Assembly: GCA_021740045.1 (NCBI GenBank)
Contig: JAIPAP010000005.1
Span: 1-56,865, forward strand
Length of the DNA stretch: 56,865 bases
Direction: 5' to 3'
Source of the DNA: Bacteroidales bacterium
GTDB taxonomy: Bacteria > Bacteroidota > Bacteroidia > Bacteroidales > JAIPAP01
Position 1 is the stretch's first letter, and each line of letters starts with the position of its first letter. The position numbers were made by a program, and so were the translations under genes. The notes under the pieces are model-generated. The model was given only the letters and a program-made list of their open reading frames with translations, had not been told where the DNA came from and did not search any database. Below are positions 1 to 25,513 of this stretch, piece by piece.

Positions 1-451
1 TAAAAACAGCCGCATCATATGTTTTGCCGTATTGATTCCAGTTTCTCCAGGAGAGCAGGCGCCGGTCATCATATTTTAATTCCTGCCGTCCCACCTTAAT
101 GCTGGAATGAGTTCCGGTTTTCACATCCACCCAGGCTTCATAAATATCAAAACCGCTTGAGCTGCCCCAAACACCGGCGCCGGAGTAAATATCCTCGCCA
201 CCCCAGGCTCTTACATCCTGAAGGGTCAGTTTGGCATCATATTTATCCGATTTGTAATTGGCAGTTAACCGGCTACGCTGGCTCACGTAATACTGTACAT
301 CATTCCCCTCAACGGGGATGTACTTATAACCGTTGTTAGCCTCACCGCGGGTGCGGAATTCACCGGTTAGTGAAAATTGGGCTTGTGCATAGCCTGCCAT
401 CAAAAAGAGAGCTAGCACACTAATCATTACTTTTATATTCTTTTTCTTCAT
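1..451 (-). CDS. Outer-membrane beta-barrel porin, alginate-export (AlgE-like) family; start complete, 3' end runs off the left edge of the window
   Basis: Not in the ORF track because it has no stop inside the window. My translation of the minus strand from ATG at 451 gives MKKKNIKVMISVLALFLMAGYAQAQ FSLTGEFRTRGEANNGYKYIPVEGNDVQYYVSQRSRLTANYKSDKYDAKLTLQDVRAWGGEDIYS...IKVGRQELKYDDRRLLSWRNWNQYGKTYDAAVF. It has a signal peptide and the GRQxLxYxxxRLLxxxxWxN...YD signature I associate with alginate-export-type porins. It lies 69 bp downstream of the rhodanese gene on the same strand. Confidence 0.7.
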   Translation of the reverse strand, partial: MKKKNIKVMISVLALFLMAGYAQAQFSLTGEFRTRGEANNGYKYIPVEGNDVQYYVSQRSRLTANYKSDKYDAKLTLQDVRAWGGEDIYSGAGVWGSSSGFDIYEAWVDVKTGTHSSIKVGRQELKYDDRRLLSWRNWNQYGKTYDAAVF

Positions 452-520
452 ATCCACTGATTTACGTTATCATTTAAATATGCTTATAATTTCATATTTC
501 ATCGCAAAAAAAGCAACACC

Positions 521-1618
521 TTAACAACCGCCGGCTACTTCAATAGTTTCGGCCTGCTTTTCGGCGCCTTCTTTTTTCACTGCGGTTGAAGTGCTCACCT
601 CATAGTCATGAATTTTTTTGGGCGAAAAGGCATGCCATTTCTTGGCTCCTCGCTCGCGCATTAAACCGTTCATAAAGCTGTTGGCACCATATACCAGCGA
701 TTTGGCATCATACCCTATCATGTTCAAATAGGCCGTAACAAAAGCACTATGTTGACCTGTAAAGCAATATGGCACCACTGTTTCGTCTATAGGCAGGGTA
801 TTCAGGTAAGTAGAGCGTCCCAATGATTTTTTCGGATCGTACTGAATAGCGCCTGGAATATGGCCTTTTTCATATTTAGCTTTGGGCCAGTAGTTTACAA
901 TGTAATAGTTGTCGCCGTTTTGGAAAAGTTCATCAGCTTTTACAGTGAAAGGCTTGAAACCTTTGCTAAGCAATTCCTGGGCACGCTCACGCAGGATTTC
1001 CATGCCCATTTCCTTGCCGGTATTGAGCTTGGGATAAGACGTAGGAGATGCTTTTTCAATGGCCTTGGTTTCCAGTTGATCGGCGTATTTATTGGAAATT
1101 TTCTTCAGCCATTTTTTCTCGGCTGTTTTCCTGTCCCAGGAGCTCATGCCCCACTTCATATCGTAAACATTATCATAGCCCAGCAAACGAAGGATAGATG
1201 TGGCAAATCCCGCCGATTGCCCGCTATAGCAAACCATTACAATGTGGCTGTAGCTGTTGGGATTGATTTCATTCTCAAAATAATCGATCAATTTGTTCAT
1301 GCCTACATTTACCGCGCCTTTAATGTGGCCGGCCGTATAGTCTTTTGATTTACGGATATCGATAATGTGAATATTGGCATCCAGATTCTTATGCACTTCC
1401 GAGGAAGCTATCATACTCGGAACTTTGGGGCTGTTGATAAAATCCCCGGTTTCCTCAATGTAGGTTAAAAGCTCGTCGAATTCATCAACAGTGCTTTTTA
1501 CCTGTTCTTGCTTTTCAGCTTGTTTTGATTCTTCACCCTGGTCATCGCAACTGGTTATTACCAGAAATACCGGTAGCATTAACAAAGCTACCCACAATTT
1601 TGCTCGTTTCATATACAC
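521..1618 (-). CDS. Lipoprotein with two tandem rhodanese (sulfurtransferase) domains and a C-terminal ...AETIEVAGGC tail
   Basis: 365-aa ORF. Signal peptide with lipobox LVITS-C. Two rhodanese active-site loops retain Cys (VMVCYSGQSAG and VPYCFTGQHSA). Cys is the last residue. The start could be Met3 (1612). Confidence 0.85.
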   Translation of the reverse strand: MYMKRAKLWVALLMLPVFLVITSCDDQGEESKQAEKQEQVKSTVDEFDELLTYIEETGDFINSPKVPSMIASSEVHKNLDANIHIIDIRKSKDYTAGHIKGAVNVGMNKLIDYFENEINPNSYSHIVMVCYSGQSAGFATSILRLLGYDNVYDMKWGMSSWDRKTAEKKWLKKISNKYADQLETKAIEKASPTSYPKLNTGKEMGMEILRERAQELLSKGFKPFTVKADELFQNGDNYYIVNYWPKAKYEKGHIPGAIQYDPKKSLGRSTYLNTLPIDETVVPYCFTGQHSAFVTAYLNMIGYDAKSLVYGANSFMNGLMRERGAKKWHAFSPKKIHDYEVSTSTAVKKEGAEKQAETIEVAGGC

Positions 1619-1683
1619 TAAAGGTTTAAAAGTTGAAAATTATTTATTGATTTCATTTTTTAAATTGATCACCATTTCAAGGC

Positions 1684-2280
1684 TTAGCATCCACCTTCAA
1701 CTTGAATGGTTTCGGTTTGCACCGGCTCGGGCTTGGCCGGAGCTTGTTCCTGTCCGCTGAAATATTTGGTGAAGTCGAATTTCGGTTTTTCCGATTTATA
1801 ATGGCCGTAACTGGGCACATAGTTTTTTAAAACATATTCCTTGGCGTATTCATACCCTCCGTAAAGAAAATGCACATTATCGTAACCCATTTGCTTAAGC
1901 AAAAGCCAGGCATCGGAGGCTTTAACTTCATTTTTGGAATACAGGACATTAATTTTCGTGTCATCCTTAAAAGTAACTTTATGGGATTTGTTGAGCAGCT
2001 CATCAAAAGGTATGTTCACTGCTTGTGGAATATGGGAGCGGCGAAATTCACCGGGACTCCTCAAATCGATAAAGCGATAATCATCCTTTTTGGAGGAGTT
2101 GATAATACCGTACAATTGCTGTAGCGAAACCCCTTCCTCAATTTCTTCTTGGCTTAGACTTCCTGCTGCCTGCTTTGGGTTCAACTTATAGTTATTGGAA
2201 TAGATCTCATTAACGATCAGCGCTACGATCATTACCACCGTAAACACCAATGCCGTGTATTTTAAACTGTTTTCTTTCAT
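1684..2280 (-). CDS. N-terminally membrane-anchored single rhodanese-fold protein lacking the active-site Cys, with a C-terminal ...TETIQVEGGC tail
   Basis: 198-aa ORF. One N-terminal hydrophobic helix (ALVFTVVMIVALIV). Rhodanese-like core (FIDLRSPGEFRRSHIPQAVNIP ... INVLYSKNEVKASDAWLLLKQMGY) with no Cys in the catalytic loop. The only Cys in the whole protein is the terminal residue. Confidence 0.8.
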   Translation of the reverse strand: MKENSLKYTALVFTVVMIVALIVNEIYSNNYKLNPKQAAGSLSQEEIEEGVSLQQLYGIINSSKKDDYRFIDLRSPGEFRRSHIPQAVNIPFDELLNKSHKVTFKDDTKINVLYSKNEVKASDAWLLLKQMGYDNVHFLYGGYEYAKEYVLKNYVPSYGHYKSEKPKFDFTKYFSGQEQAPAKPEPVQTETIQVEGGC

Positions 2281-2298
2281 AATCGTATCAATTTTGAA

Positions 2299-3534
2299 TT
2301 AACAACCACCTTCAACCTGGATAACTTCAAATTTTGGAGCCGACTTATTACCACCGGTTTTCACTTCCCGTTCCATACCACGGAAATATTCACTGGCATT
2401 TTTCCTGAAACGGTAAGTATCCAGAGCCTCTTTATAAAGTGGATTCACCGGCTTTGGTTTATCATCATAATGGAAGATGGTTTCCACCATGTTGTTCAAG
2501 CCTCCTTTTAATACATAGAAGTTCTTATAGCCTAATCGTTTATAGATCATCCAGGCTTTATCAGCCAGCATACCACTGTTTGAATAAAACACCTTGATCA
2601 TCTCCTCGCTTTCATCTTCGGGGTTGAGAAAATCAATCATCTGGCGGTTAGCGATATTTTCAAGGGGTACATTTACCGCTTTTGGCAGGCTGAATTCCCG
2701 GTACTCTTCCGATGGACGCACATCGATCAGCCGGAACTCATCATCACGGTCCATAATTCTAAAGGCCACTTCATCGGGGGTGATGTAATGCTCATCGGAG
2801 TTGAGCTCCGTTAAAAGCTGTTTGGCAGAGATCTCATTGATTCTTGCCTGGCGGTTGGCAGGGATAAAAAGGATGATCACACCCAAAGCCACCAGAACAA
2901 ATGCAGCCATGCCTGTCTTGGCCTGCCGGTTGCCGGTAACATCAAGCTTAAGCTTATTCATGCGGTTTTTCTCAATATACTCACCAATTCCAAAAGCCAG
3001 TAAAGCAATAATGATCAACAGCAAGGCAAAAAATCCCCTGGAAATTCCCAGTGAATCATAAACCTTTATCCCGCCAAAGGCACTGCTTTTGTAAAAGCTC
3101 TCTATCGCCGGATAACTTTCGCCCCAGATAAACACACCCAGCAATATACCAGCGATAAATACCATAGCATCGATGCGGCCAATGGTGGCTGCGGTAATAC
3201 TGGTTCCCGGGCAAAATCCGCCGAGCAGAAAACCCACACCCATGATCGCACCGCCAACAATAGCCGGCCACAGGAATGTAGGATTTACATAAAGGAAAGA
3301 GGCATCGACCCATCCAAAGTAATCGAAAAAGATGATCCCGATCATGGCTGTGATGGCAGCGGTAAAAAATACCTTTAACACCACCAGGTCGTAACCGTAA
3401 AAGACACCCACCAGTTTACGGGATGAAGAAAAGCCGGCCTGCTCCAGGATATATCCGAAGAAAAATCCCAGCACAATGGCAATTATATAGTTGAATTCAC
3501 TTCCTATTATTTCAAAAGGTACTAAGGGTCCCAT
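2299..3534 (-). CDS. YeeE/YedE-family (sulfur-transport domain) membrane protein fused to a rhodanese-like domain, with a C-terminal ...FEVIQVEGGC tail
   Basis: 411-aa ORF. The N-terminal ~230 aa are polytopic and Gly-rich with the GGFCPGTS motif typical of YeeE/YedE repeats. A further TM helix follows. The rhodanese-like module (LIDVRPSEEYREFSLPKAVNVP ... IKVFYSNSGMLADKAWMIYKRLGY) has no catalytic Cys. Cys is the last residue. Confidence 0.85.
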   Translation of the reverse strand: MGPLVPFEIIGSEFNYIIAIVLGFFFGYILEQAGFSSSRKLVGVFYGYDLVVLKVFFTAAITAMIGIIFFDYFGWVDASFLYVNPTFLWPAIVGGAIMGVGFLLGGFCPGTSITAATIGRIDAMVFIAGILLGVFIWGESYPAIESFYKSSAFGGIKVYDSLGISRGFFALLLIIIALLAFGIGEYIEKNRMNKLKLDVTGNRQAKTGMAAFVLVALGVIILFIPANRQARINEISAKQLLTELNSDEHYITPDEVAFRIMDRDDEFRLIDVRPSEEYREFSLPKAVNVPLENIANRQMIDFLNPEDESEEMIKVFYSNSGMLADKAWMIYKRLGYKNFYVLKGGLNNMVETIFHYDDKPKPVNPLYKEALDTYRFRKNASEYFRGMEREVKTGGNKSAPKFEVIQVEGGC

Positions 3535-3552
3535 AGTTAATACATTTAATGG

Positions 3553-4071
3553 TTATATCCAGAATTTTCGCATAAAATAGGCCACCAGGAAACCGGTTCC
3601 AAAAATGGCCATCATTGTTATAAAACCGGCCGATGAAAGCACAGCCATTCCACTCAAGGCTGCTCCACTGGTACAGCCTCGGCCAAGTTGTGAGCCTATA
3701 CCAAAAAGTACTCCGCCCGATAAAGCAATCAAAATTCGACCACCGGCGCTGAGGCGCGGTCCGCGTTCAATTTTAAACTTCAAGCGGTCGCTAACGGCTC
3801 CTGAAAAGAAAGAACCCACAACCACGCCCAACGCCAGGAACACCAGCCATGACTTCATCGGTCCAAACTCTCCCCCCAGGTATTGGGAATAAAAAGCGGA
3901 AGATTCGGCATGTTCGGGATTAACGGCATTCACAATACTTACCACTACATTCTTTAAAGCTCCGCTGGCACCCAGCCCACGACCGGACAGGTAAAACGCC
4001 GCCAGCAATACCAGGCCAAGGAAAAACCCGGCCAGGTAAGGATTCATATGCTTAACTGTTTTCTTCTCCAT
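3553..4071 (-). CDS. YeeE/YedE-family sulfur-transport membrane protein, half-size form
   Basis: 172-aa ORF with about 4 hydrophobic Gly-rich helices and the motif QLGRGCTSGA. It sits 19 bp from the other YeeE-type gene, so together they form a split transporter. Confidence 0.85.
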   Translation of the reverse strand: MEKKTVKHMNPYLAGFFLGLVLLAAFYLSGRGLGASGALKNVVVSIVNAVNPEHAESSAFYSQYLGGEFGPMKSWLVFLALGVVVGSFFSGAVSDRLKFKIERGPRLSAGGRILIALSGGVLFGIGSQLGRGCTSGAALSGMAVLSSAGFITMMAIFGTGFLVAYFMRKFWI

Positions 4072-4083
4072 AACACTATTTTT

Positions 4084-4746
4084 TTATACGGGTATATCGT
4101 GTTTACGAACTTCTTCTTCAGCCTCTTCATCTGCATCTTCTTCCTCAATCTCCTCATAACCGGTTATCATCGCCTTAAGGTTTGAAGTAACGGTATGACC
4201 GGTTGTGATGAGGTATAGATGGACAATTACAAACACTACTAACAAGAAAGCTCCCAGGGTATGCACCAGGGCAATGTTCTCAAGGCCTGAAATATTAATG
4301 GTTTCGATATCTCCGCTTTGCGGATAGCGATAAAACATGTAAAACAATCCGGAAACCACCATTACCGGGATCACCAGGACCTTCAATCCCAAATAAACCA
4401 AACGCTGCAAGGGGTTAAGCTTGCTAAGGATAGTCTTTTTGGTGGGATGGGGGGTGTTGCGGAAAATGCCGGTCACATAAAATTCCATCTGGGCTTTCAG
4501 GTTCTTCGCTGTTGGAAGATATTGCTTCCAGGCATTGGTGGTAAGGTGCCAGAAAATGGCAAAAACGATGAGCACGATAAAGGCCCATGCAGCAATATTA
4601 TGCCATTTTACGGCAGCTTCGAAACCAAAGATGTCTAAGGATCCATGGATCTCAAATCCGGTAAATCCAAGGAATAAGATCAGAATGGCTTGTGCCCAAT
4701 GCCAGAAACGTTCGAAACGGTAATATAAATAAACTTGCTTCTTCAT
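4084..4746 (-). CDS. Membrane cytochrome b subunit (hydrogenase/thiosulfate-reductase PhsC-type b-cytochrome family), probable quinol-oxidising anchor
   Basis: 220-aa ORF with 4 TM helices. His residues sit in the helices (RFWHWAQA, VKWHNIAAW, IFWHL, LVHTLG...VHLYL). The C-terminal tail is strongly acidic (EEIEEEDADEEAEEE). It lies 13 bp downstream of the octaheme cytochrome gene. Confidence 0.75.
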   Translation of the reverse strand: MKKQVYLYYRFERFWHWAQAILILFLGFTGFEIHGSLDIFGFEAAVKWHNIAAWAFIVLIVFAIFWHLTTNAWKQYLPTAKNLKAQMEFYVTGIFRNTPHPTKKTILSKLNPLQRLVYLGLKVLVIPVMVVSGLFYMFYRYPQSGDIETINISGLENIALVHTLGAFLLVVFVIVHLYLITTGHTVTSNLKAMITGYEEIEEEDADEEAEEEVRKHDIPV

Positions 4747-4759
4747 AATTCAAAACACA

Positions 4760-6340
4760 TTATTTGTTAGCACTTGCTTTTTTACGGCTGCTAGCCGAAA
4801 CTGCCCGCAGTGTGGCATGTATCACCACCCCGATGAGCGATAAAATGATCAGTATGCTGCCCATAGTATCGAGGGCTGCGTTATAATCGCGGCCGGGCAT
4901 ATAGAAATCCTCCAGCTTAGCCAGTCTGCTATTGCTACGTGTATGGCATTCTTCACATTTTACCGATTGATCGGCCGGAGAAACCATATGACTGAGGGGC
5001 AGGGTCATTTCTGTTGAGATAAAGCCATAATCACCACTATATGGCAAACCAATGTATTCCATTCCTTTTTCAATGGAAAGCGCCCAATTGAAGTCTTTCC
5101 ATAATGCGCCCTGTCCTTTTTCCTCATCCCATAATTTCATCTGTACCAGCCGGTTATACTTTTTATCATAAGGTTGTTTCCCCTTGTGGATCTTCACCGG
5201 CCATATCTTGGCATCTTCATCGCTGTACTTACCTTTTAAGGTATTGATCTGAACGGGAGTTTCATCTATCTCGTCGGATAACAAGTAATGATCGGCAGTG
5301 CCGTTAAACCAGATGTAATCGGGCTTAAGATTTTGCCCCCATTCAAAAGAGCCTTTTATGGAGAGATACTCATGCTGTCCCTCATCGTTATCAATGGAGT
5401 AAGGTTTGCCATCCTCGTCGAGCTTTGTGGCTGTTGACCAGTCCCACCGGGTTTTTGTAGGATTTGCCTTTGCATAACGGGGAATATGGCAGGTTTGACA
5501 AGCAACCTTAATGGTGTGCTCGTTGAGAAGGTTATCTTCATGCGGACGAGCTCCGTGGCAGTTGGTGCAGGTAGCCCTGTTGCGATCCATGGAAGATACA
5601 CCATAATACTTACCTTTCATCTGATGCTTTTCGGTGATGTGGCATTCAACGCAGGCCATGTCGGCGCCATCTTTGGCCATATGCACATCCACGTCTTTTG
5701 TTGTATTTAAGAGAGCTTTATCCAAAGCGCCGTTTTTCACGTTGTTACCCCCGGCGCTGAAAAAGTGGCAAATACCGCAATTTTCCTTTTTCGGGCTGCC
5801 CACGCTTTGGGCAACAAAACCCAAATCGATGCTGGGATAAGGATAACCCGCGGCACCTTTGGCTTTACGGTATGTGCCCGAATTATCATGACACACCAGG
5901 CAGTCGATATTCGACTGATCGTTAAAATCGAAAGATTTATCTTCCCATCCGTAACCAATATGGCAACGTGTACAAGTACCTTCGCTACCGGCAATACCGG
6001 TACAGAAATTATTGATGAGGTTTTTTTTGCCCAGGTAAGTCACTCCTCTTCCTTTAATGTGAGCATCTCTTTCCCAGTTCCAATGAGCATTGCTCATCAC
6101 CTCCTTACCTCTTTCGGTATGACATGATAAGCAAGCTTTGGTAACCTCATGAGCATTGTTAAAATCTTTTTGTAATTCCTCGAATTTGGAGTGGTCAACC
6201 GAAGCATCTTGATACATTGGGTCCTGTTTGCGGGGAACATAGTCGGTTTCATCATCCCCGTTACCTCCCATGCCTGCTATGCCCATAAGGATAAAGGGCG
6301 GCACCAGGAGAATCAGTAATACGGTTATTAGTCTTTTCAT
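4760..6340 (-). CDS. Octaheme c-type cytochrome, tetrathionate-reductase (Otr)-like family, with N-terminal signal/anchor and a C-terminal TM helix
   Basis: 526-aa ORF with exactly eight CxxCH motifs (CLSCH, CTRCH, CLVCH, CGICH, CVECH, CTNCH, CQTCH, CEECH). N-terminal hydrophobic segment. C-terminal helix ILIILSLIGVVIHATL followed by basic residues. The octaheme status is certain. The Otr-family assignment rests on size, motif spacing and context. Confidence 0.85.
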   Translation of the reverse strand: MKRLITVLLILLVPPFILMGIAGMGGNGDDETDYVPRKQDPMYQDASVDHSKFEELQKDFNNAHEVTKACLSCHTERGKEVMSNAHWNWERDAHIKGRGVTYLGKKNLINNFCTGIAGSEGTCTRCHIGYGWEDKSFDFNDQSNIDCLVCHDNSGTYRKAKGAAGYPYPSIDLGFVAQSVGSPKKENCGICHFFSAGGNNVKNGALDKALLNTTKDVDVHMAKDGADMACVECHITEKHQMKGKYYGVSSMDRNRATCTNCHGARPHEDNLLNEHTIKVACQTCHIPRYAKANPTKTRWDWSTATKLDEDGKPYSIDNDEGQHEYLSIKGSFEWGQNLKPDYIWFNGTADHYLLSDEIDETPVQINTLKGKYSDEDAKIWPVKIHKGKQPYDKKYNRLVQMKLWDEEKGQGALWKDFNWALSIEKGMEYIGLPYSGDYGFISTEMTLPLSHMVSPADQSVKCEECHTRSNSRLAKLEDFYMPGRDYNAALDTMGSILIILSLIGVVIHATLRAVSASSRKKASANK

Positions 6341-6398
6341 CTTATCTCATTTTATAAATGACAGTTATACACTGAAATCTATCTTCATATTTCAAGTT

Positions 6399-6406
6399 CA
6401 AAAGTA
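6399..6406 (-). promoter_or_regulatory. Candidate Bacteroidota -7 promoter box (TActTTTG on the minus strand) for the octaheme-cytochrome operon
   Basis: The plus strand reads caaaagta, whose reverse complement TACTTTTG matches TAnnTTTG. It lies 59-66 nt upstream of the ATG at 6340. Confidence 0.3.
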
Positions 6407-6484
6407 TGTTTATTTTTAAATCTGTTGTTTATTGAATAACAATGGATGCATTGGGTTAAAATATGATAATTGCCATGAGAAAAA

Positions 6485-6498
6485 TTGATCCGGATCAG
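6485..6498. promoter_or_regulatory. CRP/FNR-type operator TTGAT-CCGG-ATCAG in the divergent intergenic region
   Basis: The sequence ttgatccggatcag matches the FNR consensus TTGAT-N4-ATCAA at 9 of 10 positions. The inner 12 bp (tgatccggatca) form a perfect palindrome. It lies 53 bp upstream of the regulator ATG (6551) and 145 bp upstream of the cytochrome ATG (6340). Confidence 0.45.
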
Positions 6499-6550
6499 TT
6501 ATTCATATGATAAAATTGTATTTTTATCGTTTAATCTGAAAATTCAATCA

Positions 6551-7246
6551 ATGGCCGAACCTACCCTAACATCTAATTGCCTGGAATGCTCAGAAAACGG
6601 GCATGCCTGTTTAAAAAACCTGGCAACCGATCAGTTAAAAATAGTGGATAAGGCCCGGACGGAAGTTACCTTTAAAAAAGGCGAGATCTTATTTAAACAA
6701 GGTGCTTTTGCATCGCAGATCATGTTTATTCGCAAGGGGCTTGTGAAAATATACCTGGAAAATACATCCCGCGACCTTATTCTTAAAATAGTCCCCGAAG
6801 GTAATTACCTGGGACTTTCATCACTTTTCGGGAAAAATGTTTTTCATTATACGGCCGCAGCGTACGAGCCTACCAGCGTTTGTATGATCGAAAGAGAGAC
6901 CTTTAACCAAATGATACTCGAAAATGCCACCTTTGGTGCCGAGATCATTAAAACCTTGAATGATGAGACCATTCAAAGTTACGATCGTTTATACAGCCTT
7001 ACCCGAAAGCAATTGCATGGCCGGTTGGCTGACATACTTTTATGCTTAGCAAATACCATTTATAAAAATGACAAGTTTAAGATCCCCATATCGCGTAAAG
7101 ACCTTGCCGACCTCACCAGCATGGCAACCGAGAGTGTGATCAGGATACTGAAGGATTTTCGTAACGAAGGGATACTTTCTCTCAGCGGTAAAACCCTTGA
7201 AATTCATGATAAGGACCGTTTACAAAAAATAAGTCGTATTGGATAA
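6551..7246 (+). CDS. Crp/Fnr-family transcriptional regulator with an FNR-like N-terminal Cys cluster
   Basis: The ORF track starts at TTG 6485. I prefer ATG 6551 (MAEPTLTSNCLECSENGHAC...). It has a cNMP-binding-like beta-roll (FKKGEILFKQG...) and a C-terminal HTH (RKDLADLTSMATESVIRILKDF). Cys10, Cys13, Cys20 and Cys111 mirror E. coli FNR Cys20/23/29/122. Confidence 0.85.
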   Translation: MAEPTLTSNCLECSENGHACLKNLATDQLKIVDKARTEVTFKKGEILFKQGAFASQIMFIRKGLVKIYLENTSRDLILKIVPEGNYLGLSSLFGKNVFHYTAAAYEPTSVCMIERETFNQMILENATFGAEIIKTLNDETIQSYDRLYSLTRKQLHGRLADILLCLANTIYKNDKFKIPISRKDLADLTSMATESVIRILKDFRNEGILSLSGKTLEIHDKDRLQKISRIG

Positions 7247-7257
7247 AACTATACACC

Positions 7258-8007
7258 ATGCGTATTTTAAAACATTTACCTAATTTTATTACCAGCCTTA
7301 ATATACTTTCGGGAATTTTTGCCATTGTAGCAGCTTTCGAAATCACACATCAGAATCACTTGGTTATGGCTGCCTATTGGATCGGGATGGCTGCTTTATT
7401 TGATTACCTGGATGGGATGGTAGCCAGGTTAGTGCGTGGAACCACCATGATAGGTGAGCAATTGGATTCGCTTGCCGATATGGTATCCTTTGGCCTGGCC
7501 CCGGGCGTTATCCTTTTTCACCTGATGCTAAAGGCGCATAACCTACCCGAGCTATACATCACCGATACCAATGTGATCCCATACATTGCCTTTATGGTAC
7601 CCGTATTCTCTGCTTTTCGCCTGGCCAAATTCAATATCGATAAAAGGCAAAGCTCCAGCTTTATTGGGTTACCCACACCGGCCAGCGCCATACTGGTGGC
7701 CTCATTACCTTTAATAATGTATCAGATCGCTATAAACCAATCGGCGACCTATGGATTTATTACCGCTTTAATTCTGAACTCAAATGTATTGATCATACTG
7801 GTTGTGGCGCTTAGTGTACTAATGGTAGTTGAATTCCCCATGTTTTCGCTTAAGTTTAAAACCTACACCTGGAAAGGAAACCAAATCCGTTACATATTTT
7901 TACTGCTATCGGCCTTATTTATTGTTTATTTCTATTTTATCGCCATACCTATGATCATCTTTCTGTACATCCTGTTTTCGGCATTTTCACCCGCCAGTCA
8001 GCGTTAA
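7258..8007 (+). CDS. pssA: CDP-diacylglycerol--serine O-phosphatidyltransferase (CDP-alcohol phosphatidyltransferase family)
   Basis: 249 aa and polytopic. It carries the CDP-alcohol phosphatidyltransferase motif DYLDGMVARLVRGTTMIGEQLDSLADMVSFG. Confidence 0.85.
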   Translation: MRILKHLPNFITSLNILSGIFAIVAAFEITHQNHLVMAAYWIGMAALFDYLDGMVARLVRGTTMIGEQLDSLADMVSFGLAPGVILFHLMLKAHNLPELYITDTNVIPYIAFMVPVFSAFRLAKFNIDKRQSSSFIGLPTPASAILVASLPLIMYQIAINQSATYGFITALILNSNVLIILVVALSVLMVVEFPMFSLKFKTYTWKGNQIRYIFLLLSALFIVYFYFIAIPMIIFLYILFSAFSPASQR

Positions 8008-16325: not shown

Positions 16326-17132
16326 TTATTGAACTATGAGTTTTGAAGCATCAATCACCTGTCCGTCGGCTCTAAGGTTAATAAAATAAGAGCCTTTTGC
16401 CAGCTCATCAATTTGAATATTTTCCAAATGCCGGCCTGCTCCCATTACACCTTTGTTACGAATGGCGACGCGGTTTCCGATAATATCGAAAATCTCGATC
16501 ATAATATTCTGGCGTGTGCTGATTTCATAATCAATCCGAACGTGTTCCACTGCGGGGTTGGGATAAACCGATTTGATGCGGTTACTGAGTTGAGCCGTTG
16601 TCTCTTCCAGCCCAACCGGATAACAAGGATTCCAGATTCCGCCATTGGCTTCCAGATAGCTATTAATAGTATCATTGGAAGGCGGCCAAATGTACTGTTT
16701 GATAATGGAGTGATCGGGCGAAACCAATACAACCGTGGGATAAGAAGCTATCTGCCATGAATTGATTACCTTGTCACCGCCACCGTCATAGCCGGAAGCT
16801 GCAGGGAACTCAATGCCAAAATCCTCGTTAAACTGGGCTAATTGAGAATTACTGGCACCGAAATTCACACCCAGAAAAAACACATTTTCTTCGTTACATC
16901 CGTAATCAAGGTAAGATTGATTGATTTCGGGAGCATATGTTTGGCATCCACCGCATGTGGTGGTATAGAAATTGATCAATACCATATTCCCCTCGTCGAG
17001 AATTTCAAACAGTTCATGAATGTTGCCTTCAAGGTCTTTCACCGTAAAGTTCTTGGCCGTATCCAAGGGCGTTTGGGCCGATAAGGTGATTGTAAAAAAT
17101 GCGATTAAAATCAGTGTAAAAAGCCTTTTCAT
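16326..17132 (-). CDS. Thioredoxin-fold (TlpA/redoxin-like) protein with a T9SS type-A C-terminal sorting domain
   Basis: 268 aa with a signal peptide. Thioredoxin-like motif NFYTTTCGGCQTYAPE (CGGC). The last ~80 aa (VYPNPAVEHVRIDY...GSYFINLRADGQVIDASKLIVQ) look like a Por/T9SS sorting domain. Confidence 0.75.
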   Translation of the reverse strand: MKRLFTLILIAFFTITLSAQTPLDTAKNFTVKDLEGNIHELFEILDEGNMVLINFYTTTCGGCQTYAPEINQSYLDYGCNEENVFFLGVNFGASNSQLAQFNEDFGIEFPAASGYDGGGDKVINSWQIASYPTVVLVSPDHSIIKQYIWPPSNDTINSYLEANGGIWNPCYPVGLEETTAQLSNRIKSVYPNPAVEHVRIDYEISTRQNIMIEIFDIIGNRVAIRNKGVMGAGRHLENIQIDELAKGSYFINLRADGQVIDASKLIVQ

Positions 17133-19780: not shown

Positions 19781-22700
19781 ATGAAAACAAATCTATTTCT
19801 ATTCAAAGTAACCTCGCTATATCTGGTAATTTATTTGGTATGCGGCTTTTTGGATGCAAACCCACAGGATTCAACTGCTTTAGAACATAATGAAATGAAT
19901 TTTTATGAGCTTCAGGAAGCTTTTTATAATTATTGGGAACCCTATGATGTAAGTAATGGGTATTATTATCAAAATGGCGAACGCCTGAAAGCATTCGGAT
20001 GGAAACAGTTTAAGCGCTGGGAGTGGTTTTGGGAAAGCCGGGTAAATCCCGAGACCGGGGAATTTCCTGAAAAGCTCAGGGATGAATACTTCACAGAGAA
20101 ACAAATAAAAGGTGGGGCAGGACCAAAAGAAGGTGATGATAGCTGGACGAGTTTGGGGCCTTCTTCAACACCCGGCGGATACCACGGGCTGGGACGATTA
20201 AATTGTATAGCTTTCCGGGAAGGTGATGAAAACACATTTTATGTGGGTTCTCCAAGCGGTGGTCTTTGGAAAACCACCGATGGCGGTTCCTCGTGGGGCC
20301 CTCTAACTGATGACAATCCTGTTCTTGGAGTAAGCGATGCGGTTGTTATTCCCGGTGCGACTCCAGCTTCAGATATTGTTTATATAGCTACCGGGGACAG
20401 AGATGTGGGGTTTGCCATGCAGGCAATTGGTAGCGGACAGGTTAATGAAAACAACAGCATTGGGGTGATGGTGTCCAGCGACGGTGGAACAACCTGGGAA
20501 TCTACCGGCTTATCATTTGATGCAGCTGACAAAACACTTACTAACCGGCTCCTGCTCGATCCAAATAATAATAGCATTTTGTATGCAGCCACTTCTCTTG
20601 GAGCCTATAAAACCATTGATGGAGGAACAACGTGGGCACAAATTTCGGAGCATGAATTTATTGATATGGAATTCAAGCCCGATAATAGTAGTGTCATTTT
20701 CGGATCAACAAGGGTGGGCGGAAAAATATACAGAACAACAGATGGGGGAGGTTCATGGACCGAACAATTGGATGTATTTGGAGGCCACCGCACTGAACTT
20801 GCAGTCACACCGGCCAATCCGAGTAGAATTTACGCTGTTGTAACCGATGGGTACTCTTCCAGCGTCGGCCTGGAAGCCGTTTTCAGGTCCGATAATATGG
20901 GAGATAGTTTTACTGATATTTATGAACATCCTACAATTGGAAATACCAATCATAATTTATTACAGCGTGATTGCAATCCGAATGCCCAAACGGGTGGCCA
21001 GGGACATTACGACCTGGCCATAGCAGCAGACCCCAATGATGCCGATATTGTTTATGTAGGTGGCATTAATACCTGGAAGTCAACTGACGGAGGAGATAGC
21101 TTTGCCATTGTTAATCATTGGAGCACAACCTGTGGTGGAACAGTCGAGACTGTACATGCCGACAAACATGCGCTAGCATTCAGAGGCAGTACATCCATAC
21201 TATTCGAATGTAATGACGGGGGCTTATACAAAACTGAAAATGGGGGAACTAACTGGACCCACCTTGGAGATGGGCTGGTAACAAGCCAGATATATAGACT
21301 GGGGTTATCAGCGCTAAGCTCAAATGAGTTGATAAGCGGATTGCAGGACAATGGCACAAAAGCGATGCTCTCAGGAACCTGGACCGATGTATTGGGAGGC
21401 GACGGTATGGAATGCATAATTGATTTCAAAAACAACAATATACAATACGGTTCACTTCAGAATGGAAAACTCTACCGCTCTACCGATCATTGGAGCAATT
21501 CCACACTCATACATTTAGCGGAAGGAGCCTGGGTTACCCCATTTATAATGGATCCGGTTAGCAGCAGCACATTATATGTCGGTTATAATACTGTATTGAA
21601 ATCAGGAAATCAGGGTAGCAGTTGGTCTGTAATTGGCTACATTGACGGAAGCAATGGAATACGCTCTCTTACTATTGCTCCTTCAGATCCAAATTATATT
21701 TATGCAGCCTTTCTTGATGTGATTTACCAAACCACAACCGGGGGAGATTCCTGGACCAATATCACAGCAGGCCTACCTGTTGCCACTTCAAACATAACCT
21801 ATATAACGATCGATGAAGATGATCCTAATACCATTTGGGTCTCGATGGGTGAGTATAATGAGCATGGGGTTTATCAATCAACCGATGGAGGGTCAACATG
21901 GACTAATATATCAACAGGCCTGCCCGAAGTGCCGGTTATGTGTGTAATCCAAAATATGAATAATGATGCGGAAACAGAATTATATGCAGCTACCGATATT
22001 GGGGTTTACCAAAAAGTGGAAGTTGGTGATTGGGTGGATTTCAGTTCGGGCTTACCCAATGTGGTAGTTACCGAGCTGGAAATATATTACGATAATATTG
22101 AACCTGATGACAGCAAATTGCGTGCTGCTACTTATGGAAGAGGATTATGGGAATCACCTCTTCCTCCGGCACAGATATGCAGGCCCCCAACTGATCTGCT
22201 TGCTGATAATATTGGTGTTTATTCAGCACGTTTAAACTGGACCTCTGCCGGAGCCTCCCGCTGGAATATTGAATATGGCCTTGATGGTTATGAATTGGGA
22301 GAAGGAACATTGATTGAAGGAGTGGGGGCAAATCCTTATTCGCTTTCAGGACTTGATGGAAATACAGCCTATGATTTTTACATACAAAGTGATTGCGAAG
22401 ATGCTACAGGCATGAGTGAATGGGCCGGACCGGCTTCTTTTACTACGATAAGGGAAGGGCTTACCTGTGAATTTTCACATCTGATCACAGCACTACCTTT
22501 TTCTCTTTCCGATCATACTACCGAAAACAGTGAAAACGACTACAATATGGGCAATGGTGCTAATACATGCGGTACAGGCTATATGGAGGGCGAAGATTAT
22601 GTATTTGAATTCACTCCCGATAACGATGTTTTTCTTGATGTAACCATCTCCAATAATACCGACCCAACCGGAATTTTTATTCAGGATGGATGTCCGGATG

Positions 22701-25513
22701 ACCCTGAAACATCATGTATTGACGTTAACTATTCAATTGACGGGAATCCCTCGTTAAGTGCAGTCCCTCTGACAGGGAAAAGCACCTATTTTCTTATTGT
22801 CTCCACTGGTGGAGAAGTAGAATTTACAACATTTGATATCCTCCTCGAAGAAGTGATCTGTCCTGATCCATCTTCCATTATTATTGAGGAGGTAACCGGT
22901 ACCACAGCCACCCTGTCATGGACCACCGGAAGCTCAGCGTTATGGAATATTGAATATGGTCCGGGTGGTTTTGCTCATGGTGAAGGCACACTATTGGAAG
23001 GCATTGTTGACAATCCTTATACCATAACCGGATTGGATGCCTCAACTGCCTACGATGTATACGTACAAGATGATTGCGGTGGAGGAGAAACCAGTAACTG
23101 GGCAGGCCCCCAATCTTTCATGACCACCGAACTTTGTCCTTCTCCTTCCATGCCTATGGTAAACAGCACCACTTATACCACTGCAGAGTTAAGCTGGGAT
23201 CAGCCTGCCGGTACTTCGGCCTGGGATATCGAATGGGGAGTATCGGATTTCACATTGGGTGAAGGAACCTTAGTGACAGGGATCACAGAAGTCCCTTATG
23301 AATTAACCGGGCTGTCTCCCGGTACCACTTATAAATATTATGTCAGAAGCAACTGCACAACCAGTGGTAATGGTGTTGGTGAGTGGTACCCCGATCCAAT
23401 GGCAATGCCGGTAACATTTACAACTACCTCACCGCTTGAAGCTCCACTGAGCGAACATTTTGAAAACGGAGGATCGATACCCAGCGACTGGACGCAGGAA
23501 AACATAAGTGCATCTGTCGATTGGACCTTCCAAAATGGGGGACATGACGGCAATCCACCCAACGCTGCCGGTGGATCTTATAATGCATTTCTTTTTGCCG
23601 AAGAAGCCGGCGATCACCAAACCCGCTTGATCACTCCCCTGATCGATGTTACTTCAATGGGCGGAATGGTTTTATCATTCATGCACACACAGGCCGCATG
23701 GACAGGACAGGATGAGTTGAGCGTGTATTACCGTCCTTCTCTTGATGATGAATGGATACTGTTACCTTCGGCCACATGGACCGAAACTATTGAAAGCTGG
23801 ACCAAGGAGATGTTCGCGTTACCGGGAGCTTCATCTACCTACCAATTCGCTTTTGAAGGTAATGCCAGTTATGGCCACGGGGTATGCATTGATATGTTTA
23901 AAATCGATATTCCCATGAACATGGAATGGATGGGTGACTGGAGTTGCGATTGGAATTACATGGATAACTGGATGGGAGCCGAATGCCCGGGTGCTCTTGA
24001 TAATGTATATATCGCCAGTTGGGTTGCCAATCAACCTGAAATAAATGCCAATGTAGCCTGTAATAATCTTGAGATCGAGTCATCTGCCCAGGTAACACTA
24101 CTGCCGGAAGGCACATTAACCACTAATGGCACATTAACAATGCATGGGGATGACGGCATCTTAATCCAATCCAATGCCACCGGAACAGGCTCCCTGATTA
24201 CAAACGGAGATATATCCGGTGCAGGAAACCTGCAAGTACAACGCCATATCCCCGCATACACCGAAGATGCCGGCTGGCATTTCCTTTCTTCACCGGTGGA
24301 TGTACAGGCTATTTGCAATGGCTTTGTGGATAACAGTGATCCGCTTAATCCCATTCCCGGCATGAACGACTTCTATAAATGGTATGAACCGACAAATATG
24401 TGGATCAACACCAAAAATGACGGAGGATTTTGGAATGATGATTTTGAAGATAACTTCATTGTAGGTTGCGGTTATTTAGTGGCTTATGAAGGCATAGAAA
24501 CCAAAACCTTCACCGGCTCACCCAATGCATCCAACCTAACTTTGAATGCAGCGTCTACACCTCCATTGACCTATACACCCGGAGAAGGTGACGGCTGGAA
24601 CCTGGTAGGAAACCCATTCCCTGCTGCCATCGATTGGGATGAACTGACCAAAACCAATATTGATGATGCGGTTTACACCTATGACGGGGAAGCCGGGCAA
24701 TATAAATCCTGGAACGGATCGGCCGGAAGCTTTACCGATGGAATTATTCCCCCCATGAACGGCTTTTTTATTAAAGCAAACGGCGACCCCAGCCTGACCA
24801 TTCCCAAGTCAGCGCGCTTGCATTCTTCCACCGGATTTTATAAAAGCGCTAAATCATCAAGGGATGTGCTTAAGCTTACAATAAGCGGCAATGGCTTTTC
24901 CGACGAAACATACATTTGTTTCAGCCATAATGGCTCAAAAGGTTTCGATCATGACGGGGATGCCTATAAGCTCTATGGCGCTGAAGATGCCCCGCAGCTT
25001 TATTCCATTATCCCGGAAGAAATTCTTTCCATAAATGTATTGCCCTATGCGAATGAATGCACCATACCCATTGGGCTTGAAGTAGGGGCTGAAAAGAATT
25101 ATGTGCTTACCTGGAATGATTCTTTTTATGAAACGGTTGAACTCTCTCTTGATGATCTTAGGCAGAATAAAACGATCAACCTCAACCAACGTGATCATTA
25201 TACCTGTTCAGCCTCGCCGGGTGATGAACCCGACCGTTTTCTGCTTCATGTAACCGGAGCAACGGGAATGCCGAACACTTTGCAACACGGGGCCTTTAAG
25301 ATCTATAATCACAAGGATTTGGTCTATATTAAAAACCGTTTACAGGAAAAAGCAAGCATTGAGATATACAACCTTGTAGGTCAACTTATTACCAGCAAGC
25401 AAATTAATGGAGCCGGCACTTACACCATTTCAATGCAGGGCCATAGTGGCTTTTATGTAGTCCGTGCACAATCGTTAAATCATTATCAATCGAAAAAAAT
25501 CATCATTAAATAA
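19781..25513 (+). CDS. Giant secreted T9SS cargo: Asp-box (BNR) beta-propeller region, three FN3-like modules, a MAM/choice-of-anchor-like domain and a T9SS C-terminal sorting domain
   Basis: 1910 aa with a signal peptide. At least 8 Asp-box motifs (TTDGGSSWG, SSDGGTTWE, TIDGGTTWA, TTDGGGSWT, STDGGDSFA, TENGGTNWT, TTGGDSWT, STDGGSTWT). Three ~90-aa repeats contain L(N/S)W...W(N/D)IE(Y/W)G...T(A/T)Y. The C-terminus ...SIEIYNLVGQLI...GFYVVRAQ...KKIIIK is typical of a T9SS sorting domain. Confidence 0.85.
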   Translation: MKTNLFLFKVTSLYLVIYLVCGFLDANPQDSTALEHNEMNFYELQEAFYNYWEPYDVSNGYYYQNGERLKAFGWKQFKRWEWFWESRVNPETGEFPEKLRDEYFTEKQIKGGAGPKEGDDSWTSLGPSSTPGGYHGLGRLNCIAFREGDENTFYVGSPSGGLWKTTDGGSSWGPLTDDNPVLGVSDAVVIPGATPASDIVYIATGDRDVGFAMQAIGSGQVNENNSIGVMVSSDGGTTWESTGLSFDAADKTLTNRLLLDPNNNSILYAATSLGAYKTIDGGTTWAQISEHEFIDMEFKPDNSSVIFGSTRVGGKIYRTTDGGGSWTEQLDVFGGHRTELAVTPANPSRIYAVVTDGYSSSVGLEAVFRSDNMGDSFTDIYEHPTIGNTNHNLLQRDCNPNAQTGGQGHYDLAIAADPNDADIVYVGGINTWKSTDGGDSFAIVNHWSTTCGGTVETVHADKHALAFRGSTSILFECNDGGLYKTENGGTNWTHLGDGLVTSQIYRLGLSALSSNELISGLQDNGTKAMLSGTWTDVLGGDGMECIIDFKNNNIQYGSLQNGKLYRSTDHWSNSTLIHLAEGAWVTPFIMDPVSSSTLYVGYNTVLKSGNQGSSWSVIGYIDGSNGIRSLTIAPSDPNYIYAAFLDVIYQTTTGGDSWTNITAGLPVATSNITYITIDEDDPNTIWVSMGEYNEHGVYQSTDGGSTWTNISTGLPEVPVMCVIQNMNNDAETELYAATDIGVYQKVEVGDWVDFSSGLPNVVVTELEIYYDNIEPDDSKLRAATYGRGLWESPLPPAQICRPPTDLLADNIGVYSARLNWTSAGASRWNIEYGLDGYELGEGTLIEGVGANPYSLSGLDGNTAYDFYIQSDCEDATGMSEWAGPASFTTIREGLTCEFSHLITALPFSLSDHTTENSENDYNMGNGANTCGTGYMEGEDYVFEFTPDNDVFLDVTISNNTDPTGIFIQDGCPDDPETSCIDVNYSIDGNPSLSAVPLTGKSTYFLIVSTGGEVEFTTFDILLEEVICPDPSSIIIEEVTGTTATLSWTTGSSALWNIEYGPGGFAHGEGTLLEGIVDNPYTITGLDASTAYDVYVQDDCGGGETSNWAGPQSFMTTELCPSPSMPMVNSTTYTTAELSWDQPAGTSAWDIEWGVSDFTLGEGTLVTGITEVPYELTGLSPGTTYKYYVRSNCTTSGNGVGEWYPDPMAMPVTFTTTSPLEAPLSEHFENGGSIPSDWTQENISASVDWTFQNGGHDGNPPNAAGGSYNAFLFAEEAGDHQTRLITPLIDVTSMGGMVLSFMHTQAAWTGQDELSVYYRPSLDDEWILLPSATWTETIESWTKEMFALPGASSTYQFAFEGNASYGHGVCIDMFKIDIPMNMEWMGDWSCDWNYMDNWMGAECPGALDNVYIASWVANQPEINANVACNNLEIESSAQVTLLPEGTLTTNGTLTMHGDDGILIQSNATGTGSLITNGDISGAGNLQVQRHIPAYTEDAGWHFLSSPVDVQAICNGFVDNSDPLNPIPGMNDFYKWYEPTNMWINTKNDGGFWNDDFEDNFIVGCGYLVAYEGIETKTFTGSPNASNLTLNAASTPPLTYTPGEGDGWNLVGNPFPAAIDWDELTKTNIDDAVYTYDGEAGQYKSWNGSAGSFTDGIIPPMNGFFIKANGDPSLTIPKSARLHSSTGFYKSAKSSRDVLKLTISGNGFSDETYICFSHNGSKGFDHDGDAYKLYGAEDAPQLYSIIPEEILSINVLPYANECTIPIGLEVGAEKNYVLTWNDSFYETVELSLDDLRQNKTINLNQRDHYTCSASPGDEPDRFLLHVTGATGMPNTLQHGAFKIYNHKDLVYIKNRLQEKASIEIYNLVGQLITSKQINGAGTYTISMQGHSGFYVVRAQSLNHYQSKKIIIK

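Follow-up and report, generated by a model that had tools for sequence, protein, structure and literature searches.

What do the octaheme cytochromes c of the Otr family act on in living cells? The physiological substrate of the family has been uncertain since the structure of 2004, and metagenome surveys routinely count the gene under "tetrathionate reduction". The question is raised by a 56,865-nt contig of a Bacteroidales bacterium (JAIPAP010000005.1 of assembly GCA_021740045.1; the whole stretch is called the window here), on the minus strand of which, from 6340 to 1, seven co-directional genes encode an Otr-family cytochrome (OCT), a cytochrome b (CYB), a half-size YeeE (YEh), a second YeeE half fused to a rhodanese-like carrier (YEr), an anchored rhodanese-like carrier (RHa), a double-rhodanese lipoprotein (RH2) and an outer-membrane porin (POR) that is cut by the window edge. 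With moderate confidence, we read this as a chromosomal operon for a quinone-linked periplasmic sulfur-compound oxidoreductase, which would cooperate with carriers bearing cysteine arms like that of SoxY and with a YeeE channel. The linkage of the cytochrome to the channel and the arms across phyla, together with its interchange with polysulfide reductase, provides a testable hypothesis for the Otr substrate.

An earlier note on this DNA, made from the sequence alone, had described seven co-directional genes separated by 13-69 bp and had interpreted them as an envelope-spanning module for sulfur redox chemistry and uptake. The interpretation is supported in part, and none of the refuting conditions of the note that computation can address came about. 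All seven genes were confirmed on the minus strand of 1-6340, and the gaps, in order, are corrected to 13, 12, 18, 18, 65-71, and 69 bp (Table 1). The identities proposed for the octaheme cytochrome with its C-terminal transmembrane (TM) helix, the cytochrome b, the half YeeE, and the double-rhodanese lipoprotein agree with their motifs and with Pfam and NCBIfam. For the YeeE-rhodanese fusion and the anchored rhodanese, the rhodanese fold was recovered but the catalytic cysteine was not, and the AlgE-like porin is supported by a PF13372 match, with only its first 150 codons lying within the window.

Table 1. Features of the operon, its upstream region and related arm-carrier genes. Window coordinates are given in the direction of the strand; those of the DUF302 genes refer to their own loci.
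Feature	Position	Strand	Remarks
OCT, Otr-family octaheme cytochrome c, 526 aa	6340..4760	-	N-terminal signal/TM, eight CxxCH, C-terminal TM
CYB, four-helix cytochrome b, Ni_hydr_CYTB/PhsC type, 220 aa	4746..4084	-	PF01292, E=9e-31
YEh, half-size YeeE/YedE, C-terminal half H8-H13, 172 aa	4071..3553	-	PF04143 profile positions 172-309
YEr, YeeE N-half H1-H6 + rhodanese-like fusion, 411 aa	3534..2299	-	PF04143 + rhodanese fold
YEr terminal Gly-Gly-Cys codons	2310..2302	-	then TAA stop
RHa, N-terminally anchored periplasmic rhodanese-like carrier, 198 aa	2280..1684	-	PF00581, E=4e-16
RH2, double-rhodanese lipoprotein, 363 aa	1612..521	-	two rhodanese stretches, E=2e-28; lipobox LVITSC
POR, AlgE-like outer-membrane beta-barrel, signal peptide, 5' 150 codons	451..1	-	Alginate_exp PF13372, E=2e-11
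Divergent intergenic region, 144 bp	6341..6484	.	between OCT and regulator
TACTTTTG	6406..6399	-	58 nt upstream of OCT ATG; putative promoter element
Crp/Fnr-family regulator	6485..7246	+	N-terminal CxxCx6C; cNMP_binding + HTH_Crp_2; divergent from operon
DUF302...GGC genes	L076:9284-9838, L078:9242-9790, L162:4399-4959, L164:4372-4929, L166:4418-4963, L167:4442-4990		

Linkage of Otr to a YeeE/Cysteine-Arm Module

A genome scan for Otr homologues yielded 80 loci, whose open reading frames (ORFs) were screened with the window proteins; 58 of these loci have at least 3.2 kb of sequence downstream of OCT. The cytochrome gene is adjoined by CYB in all of them (58/58), accompanied by both YEh and YEr in 44, and associated with at least one protein ending in Gly-Gly-Cys (GGC) in 48, with two further GGC-ended proteins, at L058 (a 173-aa rhodanese) and L076 (DUF302), having been missed by the screen. 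The hosts include Bacteroidia families, Ignavibacteria/Melioribacteraceae, Kapabacteria, and Acidobacteriota, as well as Pirellulaceae (Planctomycetota), LCP-89, Delongbacteria, and Anaerolineae (Chloroflexota), and the linkage persists among the loci although gene order has been shuffled. For example, the order OCT-CYB-YEh-YEr-RHa-RH2(-POR) of the window recurs in L002 and L082, most six-gene loci are arranged as OCT-CYB-RH2-YEh-YEr-RHa, and L011, L028, and L110 as OCT-CYB-POR-RH2-YEh-YEr-RHa; a further subtype combines OCT and a longer CYB with a small lipoprotein rhodanese that keeps its catalytic cysteine and ends in GGC. Thus, when relatives were surveyed for the seven-gene synteny, as the earlier note had proposed, the linkage turned out to be strongly conserved but the full set did not, the conserved unit being four genes: Otr, cytochrome b, a YeeE half, and a YeeE-carrier fusion constitute the core, and RH2 and RHa are found in a subset. 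Full-text literature searches, with subscription-only papers outside their coverage, found no description of an Otr-YeeE-Cys-arm operon.

Other arrangements were also encountered around Otr homologues. In a member of the Lentimicrobiaceae (L058:4504-13671), a single Fnr-type regulator is flanked by a divergent pair of Otr-cytochrome b operons that differ in subtype, one with the YeeE pair and the other with a small GGC-arm rhodanese, and the same contig has a third YeeE/carrier set farther along. The gammaproteobacterial loci L074, L075, and L079 (e.g., L075:770-6452) hold Otr and cytochrome b in a conserved cluster with a pentaheme, a second octaheme, and a tetraheme cytochrome, and neither SoxY nor GGC proteins were found in these three loci.

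The reverse scan, in which metagenomes were searched with a YEr alignment and the best 80 loci were kept, revealed an alternative partner of the module. Upstream of YEr, OCT and/or CYB are present in 52 of these loci and a three-gene molybdoenzyme operon in 13; the remaining 15 end within 2.5 kb upstream, and no locus lacks both partners. Compared with the Thermus thermophilus polysulfide reductase PsrA (2VPW), the molybdoenzyme's catalytic subunit reaches 645 bits, and the two genes that accompany it encode a four-cluster ferredoxin and an NrfD/PsrC membrane subunit. In the Psr-linked loci (including L091, L093 (1826-8010), L095, L103, L106, L109, L118, L130, L138, L146, and L155), PsrABC is followed by the split YeeE pair and by GGC-arm carriers, the carrier being separate and anchored. 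Both Otr-linked and Psr-linked copies of the module occur in the genome loci L032 (2749-9724), which adds a FadL/TodX-type porin, and L038 (33-5037). By gene neighborhood, then, one YeeE/arm module can be paired with either of two unrelated quinol-linked periplasmic reductases, and this interchange is the strongest computational argument that Otr performs sulfane-type sulfur chemistry in this context. The tie of the Otr family to sulfur, rather than to nitrogen, that had been suggested from the operon is strengthened by the finding that PsrABC-type polysulfide reductases are the only other enzymes to which the YeeE/Cys-arm module is attached.

The arrangement is reminiscent of Wolinella Sud/PsrABC and Salmonella PhsABC, which are likewise periplasm-facing, quinol-linked sulfur reductases, with Sud serving as a rhodanese-like carrier and PhsC being the protein that CYB most resembles. 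However, the catalytic subunit of PsrABC and PhsABC is a molybdoenzyme, whereas here it is a multiheme cytochrome, and Sud holds sulfur on its rhodanese active-site cysteine, a residue that YEr and RHa have lost, their conserved cysteine being terminal.

The Otr-Family Cytochrome and Its Cytochrome b

OCT contains exactly eight CxxCH motifs and zero CxxCK motifs, and its score of 577.9 bits on TIGR04315 (cut-off 375) places it in the Otr family. Its residues 56-469 match Shewanella Otr (1SP3) with E=3.7e-124, at 47% identity in an alignment (A1) of 16 OCT-family sequences, the Shewanella crystal-chain sequence included. K105 and C113 of OCT, both invariant in A1, align to Otr Lys56 and Cys64, reported by Mowat et al. 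2004 to be the ligand of heme 2 outside a CxxCK motif and an active-site cysteine, respectively. The homology with Shewanella Otr extends over the whole catalytic domain, and the eight CxxCH motifs and the Lys56/Cys64 equivalents are common to both, but the C-terminal TM helix of OCT (residues 487-517), which is conserved in relatives together with His508/Arg512, lies past the end of the aligned crystal-chain sequence, and OCT always sits beside a cytochrome b and is linked to YeeE/Cys-arm genes. To our knowledge, no cytochrome b or YeeE/Cys-arm partners have been described for Shewanella Otr, the genomic context of which was not looked at here. Judged by its family profile and structural match, OCT belongs with Otr and not with the nitrite or hydroxylamine octahemes; a placement with the latter is what the earlier note had named as speaking against a sulfur role.

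CYB scores 107 bits on PF01292 (cut-off 30), and its best named NCBIfam family is the PhsC thiosulfate reductase cytochrome b (NF011582), at 109 bits under a cut-off of 204. A cluster of Otr and cytochrome b561 has been reported from an Ignavibacteriae genome (PMC7509429). The Otr-linked cytochrome b is much longer (443 aa) at two Bacteroidota loci (L065:2770-4101 and L066:10941-12272), and at an Anaerolineae locus (L081:14925-17777) its ORF reaches 950 aa and includes seven CxxCH motifs.

Gly-Gly-Cys Arms on Rhodanese-Like and Other Scaffolds

YEr, RHa, and RH2 all end in GGC, and these 3 are alone in doing so among the window's 262 frames of 60 aa or more. Across the genome loci, 92 of 4924 ORFs end in GGC, 85 of which are homologous to YEr, RHa, or RH2; in the metagenome loci, all of the 119 GGC-ended ORFs (out of 3526) are homologues, amounting to 204 of 211 over both sets (160 loci). 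The "tethered Cys arm" of the earlier note is thus not a product of chance. Within the YEr family, 77 of 117 full-length representatives (50% identity) end in GGC with at most 3 extra residues, and about 20 more in (E/R/S)GC. For RHa, a homologue search by an insensitive word index returned only RHa, and ORF-level phmmer on related loci was used instead. The sole cysteine of RHa is its C-terminal residue 198 (...VEGGC); in both YEr and RHa, the C-terminal residue is the only periplasmic cysteine, and the terminal cysteine is the only one in 47 of 63 YEr/RHa periplasmic tails of relatives.

A rhodanese fold was readily detected in YEr (E=1e-13) as well as in RHa, but the catalytic cysteine expected of an active sulfurtransferase was found in neither: the loop reads FYSNSG in YEr, with Ser at the catalytic position when the protein is aligned to solved rhodaneses, and LYSKNE in RHa, and relatives lack the catalytic cysteine as well. 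RH2 keeps both catalytic cysteines, C130 (VCYSGQS) and C285 (YCFTGQH), as numbered from GTG 1618, and ends in ...VAGGC; the public gene call starts at ATG 1612, with the GTG at 1618 as the alternative. With a rhodanese fold and a catalytic cysteine in both loops, RH2 has the hallmarks of an active sulfurtransferase. The sulfur handling that had been attributed to the rhodaneses may therefore apply to the two RH2 domains but not to the other two of the four domains. The rhodanese domains of YEr and RHa are, by their residues, catalytically dead scaffolds, and hence it is the arm, rather than rhodanese chemistry, that constitutes the conserved hallmark. A known C-terminal sorting signal was considered as the identity of the arm and rejected, because no hydrophobic segment follows the cysteine.

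The lipobox cysteine is conserved in nearly all RH2 homologues, and all three arms are predicted to be extracytoplasmic, which fits a relay towards the YeeE channel. RH2 also has an acidic run right after the lipobox cysteine (CDDQGEESK), which is not conserved in most homologues; it resembles a Bacteroidota surface-export signal, and by this analogy RH2 might be located at the cell surface beside the porin.

The nearest precedent for these arms is SoxYZ, in which a strand-like segment and Gly-Gly-Cys likewise occupy the extreme C-terminus of a periplasmic protein. SoxY is the classic swinging-arm carrier with covalently bound sulfur that serves periplasmic enzymes, including the c-type cytochrome SoxXA. 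The resemblance is confined to the terminal GGC, as the arm proteins gave no SoxY or SoxZ domain match. Moreover, the SoxY arm is GGCGG on an Ig-like fold, whereas here the arm stops at the cysteine and the scaffold is rhodanese-like or DUF302, and the present system comes without SoxZ, SoxB, and SoxXA, its electron partner being the quinone pool rather than a soluble cytochrome c.

Arm carriers built on other scaffolds were found beside Otr. Six loci were sampled from a betaproteobacterial Otr clade, the named members of which are Thiobacillus, Sulfurimicrobium, Rhodocyclaceae, and Gallionellaceae, and in all six (6/6) a DUF302 protein of 181-187 aa, anchored at its N-terminus and finishing in a Gly/Ala-rich tail with GGC as the last residues, is encoded immediately upstream of OCT-CYB. 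In lucinid symbionts, a divergent soxY/soxZ pair adjoins otr (PMC11237559). Together, these two cases indicate that the recurrent partner of the membrane-anchored Otr is a terminal-cysteine arm, whatever its scaffold. DUF302 genes of unknown function are also present in the sox clusters of Acidithiobacillia (PMC5037610). The DUF302 protein is a candidate cysteine-arm carrier, and the linkage described here assigns a candidate role to DUF302 proteins in sulfur gene clusters.

The Split YeeE Pair

YEh and YEr score 69 and 48.7 bits, respectively, on PF04143 (cut-off 27), which places both in the YeeE/YedE family. Matches to the TsuA/YeeE thiosulfate equivalogs (NF041049, NF052577) and to the YedE selenium families (TIGR04112, NF033796) reached 21-27 bits against cut-offs of 200-645 and do not support assignment to any of them. 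A sequence-only search of the Protein Data Bank with YEh and YEr did not find the StYeeE structure, and the YeeE assignment thus rests on the Pfam profile. Among 122 homologues of YEh, its motifs GRGLGASGA and RGCTSGAALSG (with Cys133) show a conservation of 95% or more. YEr has only two cysteines, C108 and C411, and both C108 and the terminal GGC are invariant in a further alignment (A2). The loop cysteines of the StYeeE C91 and C293 types are retained as C108 in YEr and C133 in YEh, and the equivalent of Cys22, on the cytoplasm side, is Ser in YEr (GFSSS). As far as sequence can tell, the conserved pore motifs argue for a working YeeE channel rather than a mere anchor.

In the StYeeE structure, the N-terminus is outside and the C-terminus inside, and H1-H6 and H8-H13 are joined by the topology-reversing H7 (PMC7449682). 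Up to about residue 200, YEr matches the N-terminal half of Sulf_transp, and its parts are, in order, this N-half, the H7-like helix at residues 158-189, a basic loop, an extra helix (204-230), the rhodanese-like domain, and the ...VEGGC arm. In the PsrABC-linked loci, YEr is split exactly after the H7-like helix, and the separate carrier begins with a signal anchor, like RHa. Charge counts over 16 YEr homologues gave a mean of 0 Lys + Arg for the N-terminus and a mean of 3.3 for the TM5-TM6 loop. From the homologous StYeeE topology and this charge bias, we infer that the rhodanese-like domain and arm of YEr would lie in the periplasm; YEh is predicted to be N-in/C-in.

The PF04143 family is common to YeeE/TsuA-TsuB/YeeD, PmpAB, and SoxT, and PmpAB is also split into two genes. 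Whereas YeeE/TsuA is a nine-helix single polypeptide with a TusA-like partner, here there are two genes, the Cys22 equivalent is replaced, no TusA-like gene accompanies the channel in the operon, and the N-half keeps an H7-like helix and is fused via the extra helix to a periplasmic carrier. A hand-over of sulfur from SoxY to the YeeE-like SoxT has been proposed (PMC11582611), and the natural YEr fusion bears on whether YeeE/SoxT transporters take sulfur from carrier-protein cysteines.

A Proposed Sulfur Relay and Its Alternatives

In the mechanism that we propose, Otr would be held at the inner membrane by its C-terminal helix, a role likened to that of the anchor helices of formate dehydrogenase-N and hydrogenase small subunits, and would exchange electrons with the menaquinone pool via the PhsC-like cytochrome b. 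YEh and the N-half of YEr would form a split YeeE-type channel, with the dead rhodanese-like scaffold bearing its flexible arm on the periplasmic side. By analogy with the SoxY swinging arm, we infer that the arm cysteine would hold sulfur covalently, as a persulfide, polysulfide, or S-thiosulfonate, and it would present this cargo to the Otr active site (Lys-ligated heme 2, Cys113) and/or to the outer funnel of YeeE. RHa, RH2, and the AlgE-like porin may represent an optional outer layer that extends the relay towards the outer membrane. Sulfane sulfur of the tetrathionate, polysulfide, or thiosulfate type would be reduced by quinol electrons, and the product would be partly imported. The reductive direction is favored because of the Fnr-type regulator and the replacement by Psr, and is likely in this anaerobe-type Bacteroidota genome.

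More tentatively, it is possible that membrane-anchored Otr and some PsrABC enzymes mainly process sulfur tethered to arm cysteines, rather than free anions, and so form a quinone-linked counterpart of Sox. Three or more unrelated scaffolds would then have acquired the arm (the YeeE-fused rhodanese-like domain, DUF302, and SoxYZ), and where it is fused to YeeE it would additionally pass sulfur through the inner membrane. If the proposal holds, the way in which sulfur-cycle functions are annotated in thousands of Bacteroidota, Ignavibacteriota, and betaproteobacterial genomes would have to be refined.

Several observations weigh against a reductase served by arms and channel. Eight of the 58 loci (L031, L055, L065, L066, L068 (Melioribacter), L074, L075, and L077) have no recognizable GGC-arm partner, which indicates that the Otr enzyme can work without the arm, yet the YeeE pair is present in L031 and L055. 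YEh and YEr score far under the TsuA equivalog cut-offs (27 vs. 400 bits), and no TusA/YeeD-like acceptor was seen among the seven operon genes, leaving import without a corroborating partner. The betaproteobacterial hosts are sulfur oxidizers, which argues against a direction that is fixed across the family. According to the literature, Otr also reduces nitrite and hydroxylamine in vitro, and the arm could have a role other than carrying cargo.

The points on direction and cargo can be developed into alternatives, the first of which is that Otr and cytochrome b oxidize arm-bound sulfur, or couple thiosulfate or sulfide to the arm in a SoxXA-like manner, and pass the electrons to quinone, with YeeE supplying or removing sulfur species. 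Cytochromes b of this type run both ways, serving hydrogenase/formate dehydrogenase as well as Phs. The DUF302-linked clade is closest to organisms named as Thiobacillus, Sulfurimicrobium, Sulfuricellaceae, and Gallionellaceae, which are sulfur or iron oxidizers; one DUF302-linked locus has a flavocytochrome-c-sulfide-dehydrogenase-like gene upstream, and the DUF302 genes of Acidithiobacillia lie within sox clusters (PMC5037610). We nevertheless regard this direction as unlikely, given that the only alternative partner of the module in the YEr-centered sample is PsrABC, a reductase, that an Fnr-type regulator is found next to the operon in this genome as in about a dozen relatives, and that the window encodes a 2-oxoacid:ferredoxin oxidoreductase, typical of anaerobes. 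A selenium or tellurium system, in which selenite or tellurite would be reduced in the periplasm with Se held on thiol arms and taken up in a YedE-like manner, is quite improbable. Its appeal lies in the weak matches of YEh and YEr to YedE selenium transporters (21-27 bits), in similarly weak matches that connect RH2 and related rhodaneses with rhodanese selenoprotein families and with ExtH from the Geobacter selenite/tellurite operon, and in the respiratory selenite reductase Srr, which is PsrA-like and has rhodanese genes in its operon. However, all such matches are far under their cut-offs and no better than those to thiosulfate proteins, no GG-TGA (selenocysteine) variant of the arm was found in any homologue, the Psr partner is very close to the T. 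thermophilus polysulfide reductase, and many metagenomes from sulfidic and anoxic settings are rich in the module.

We likewise give very little credence to the idea that the terminal cysteines carry no cargo, acting either as redox thiols kept reduced via the YeeE cysteines, as in DsbD/CcdA, or as a heme ligand or plug at Otr, in which case a removable arm cysteine would regulate or complete catalysis. Cys-ligated hemes do occur in SoxXA and TsdA. The cysteines of YeeE are spaced across the membrane (PMC7449682), and the view that sulfur hops directly from Cys to Cys through channels of the YeeE type has been questioned by the Dahl group (PMC11582611). Against a thiol relay or heme plug stand the Ser at the cytoplasm-side Cys22 position of YEr, the presence of the arm on active-rhodanese proteins, whose known chemistry is persulfide transfer, and the nearest motif precedent, SoxY, which is a cargo arm. 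Finally, that Otr is a nitrite or hydroxylamine reductase with functionally unrelated sulfur-type neighbors, as the in vitro reduction of these compounds by Shewanella Otr might suggest, appears scarcely credible in view of the YeeE/arm linkage across at least eight phyla despite shuffled order, the reciprocal replacement by PsrABC, and the lack in OCT of the CxxCK heme motif of ammonifying octaheme and pentaheme nitrite reductases.

The Porin, the Regulator and the Remainder of the Window

The 150-aa POR fragment scores 43.7 bits on PF13372 (cut-off 25.2), compared with 48.5 bits for the full-length orthologue at L011, the barrel itself lying outside the window. Full-length orthologues of 417-448 aa were found at L011, L028, L082, and L110. 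L082 reproduces the seven-gene order of the window exactly, upstream regulator included, and its 448-aa porin is followed by unrelated genes, indicating that the operon ends at the porin. POR homologues are limited to L001, L011, L028, L082, and L110, other loci having a FadL-like or other outer-membrane protein, or none; the porin was therefore rejected as a conserved operon member, and the porin that the earlier note had taken for a dedicated substrate entry is present but a rare add-on of about five loci. In the sulfur disproportionator Desulfurivibrio dismutans, a porin, lipoprotein sulfurtransferases, and YeeE/YedE are co-localized and have been modeled as moving sulfur from outside to the cytoplasm (PMC12142623), but that cluster is not described as Otr-linked or as having C-terminal cysteine arms.

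The divergently encoded Crp/Fnr-family protein is a candidate regulator of the operon. Its best NCBIfam matches are Fnr and FixK, both under cut-off, and about a dozen related loci have a homologue of its gene directly upstream of OCT, in most cases encoded on the opposite strand. No convincing FNR box was found in the OCT/regulator intergenic region, in which TACTTTTG appears to fit the Bacteroidota -7 promoter motif, TAnnTTTG. A scan of 1..7300 for sigma-70 promoters and terminators gave counts not above those of shuffled sequences, Bacteroidota promoters being outside the scope of the tool, and is thus uninformative on operon structure.

The rest of the 57-kb window encodes Bacteroidota housekeeping functions, among them a protein sorted by the type IX secretion system (T9SS), OmpH, RecQ, TilS, DsbD, LpxK, ProRS, and the 2-oxoacid:ferredoxin oxidoreductase, and no further sulfur or selenium genes were found in it. 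A 1910-aa ORF (19781-25513, +) has only Sortilin/Vps10-like and fibronectin type III matches, and two ORFs of 479 aa (50224-51663, -) and 617 aa (51679-53532, -) have no Pfam match. Two thioredoxin-fold AhpC/TSA-like proteins are encoded at 16326-17132 (-) and 43157-44344 (-), one of them with a T9SS C-terminal sorting domain, which marks the Bacteroidota host and suggests a secreted thiol peroxidase or redoxin. A KaiC-like double-domain ATPase (28296-29753, +) adjoins a PAS-containing hybrid histidine kinase (30101-32485, +).

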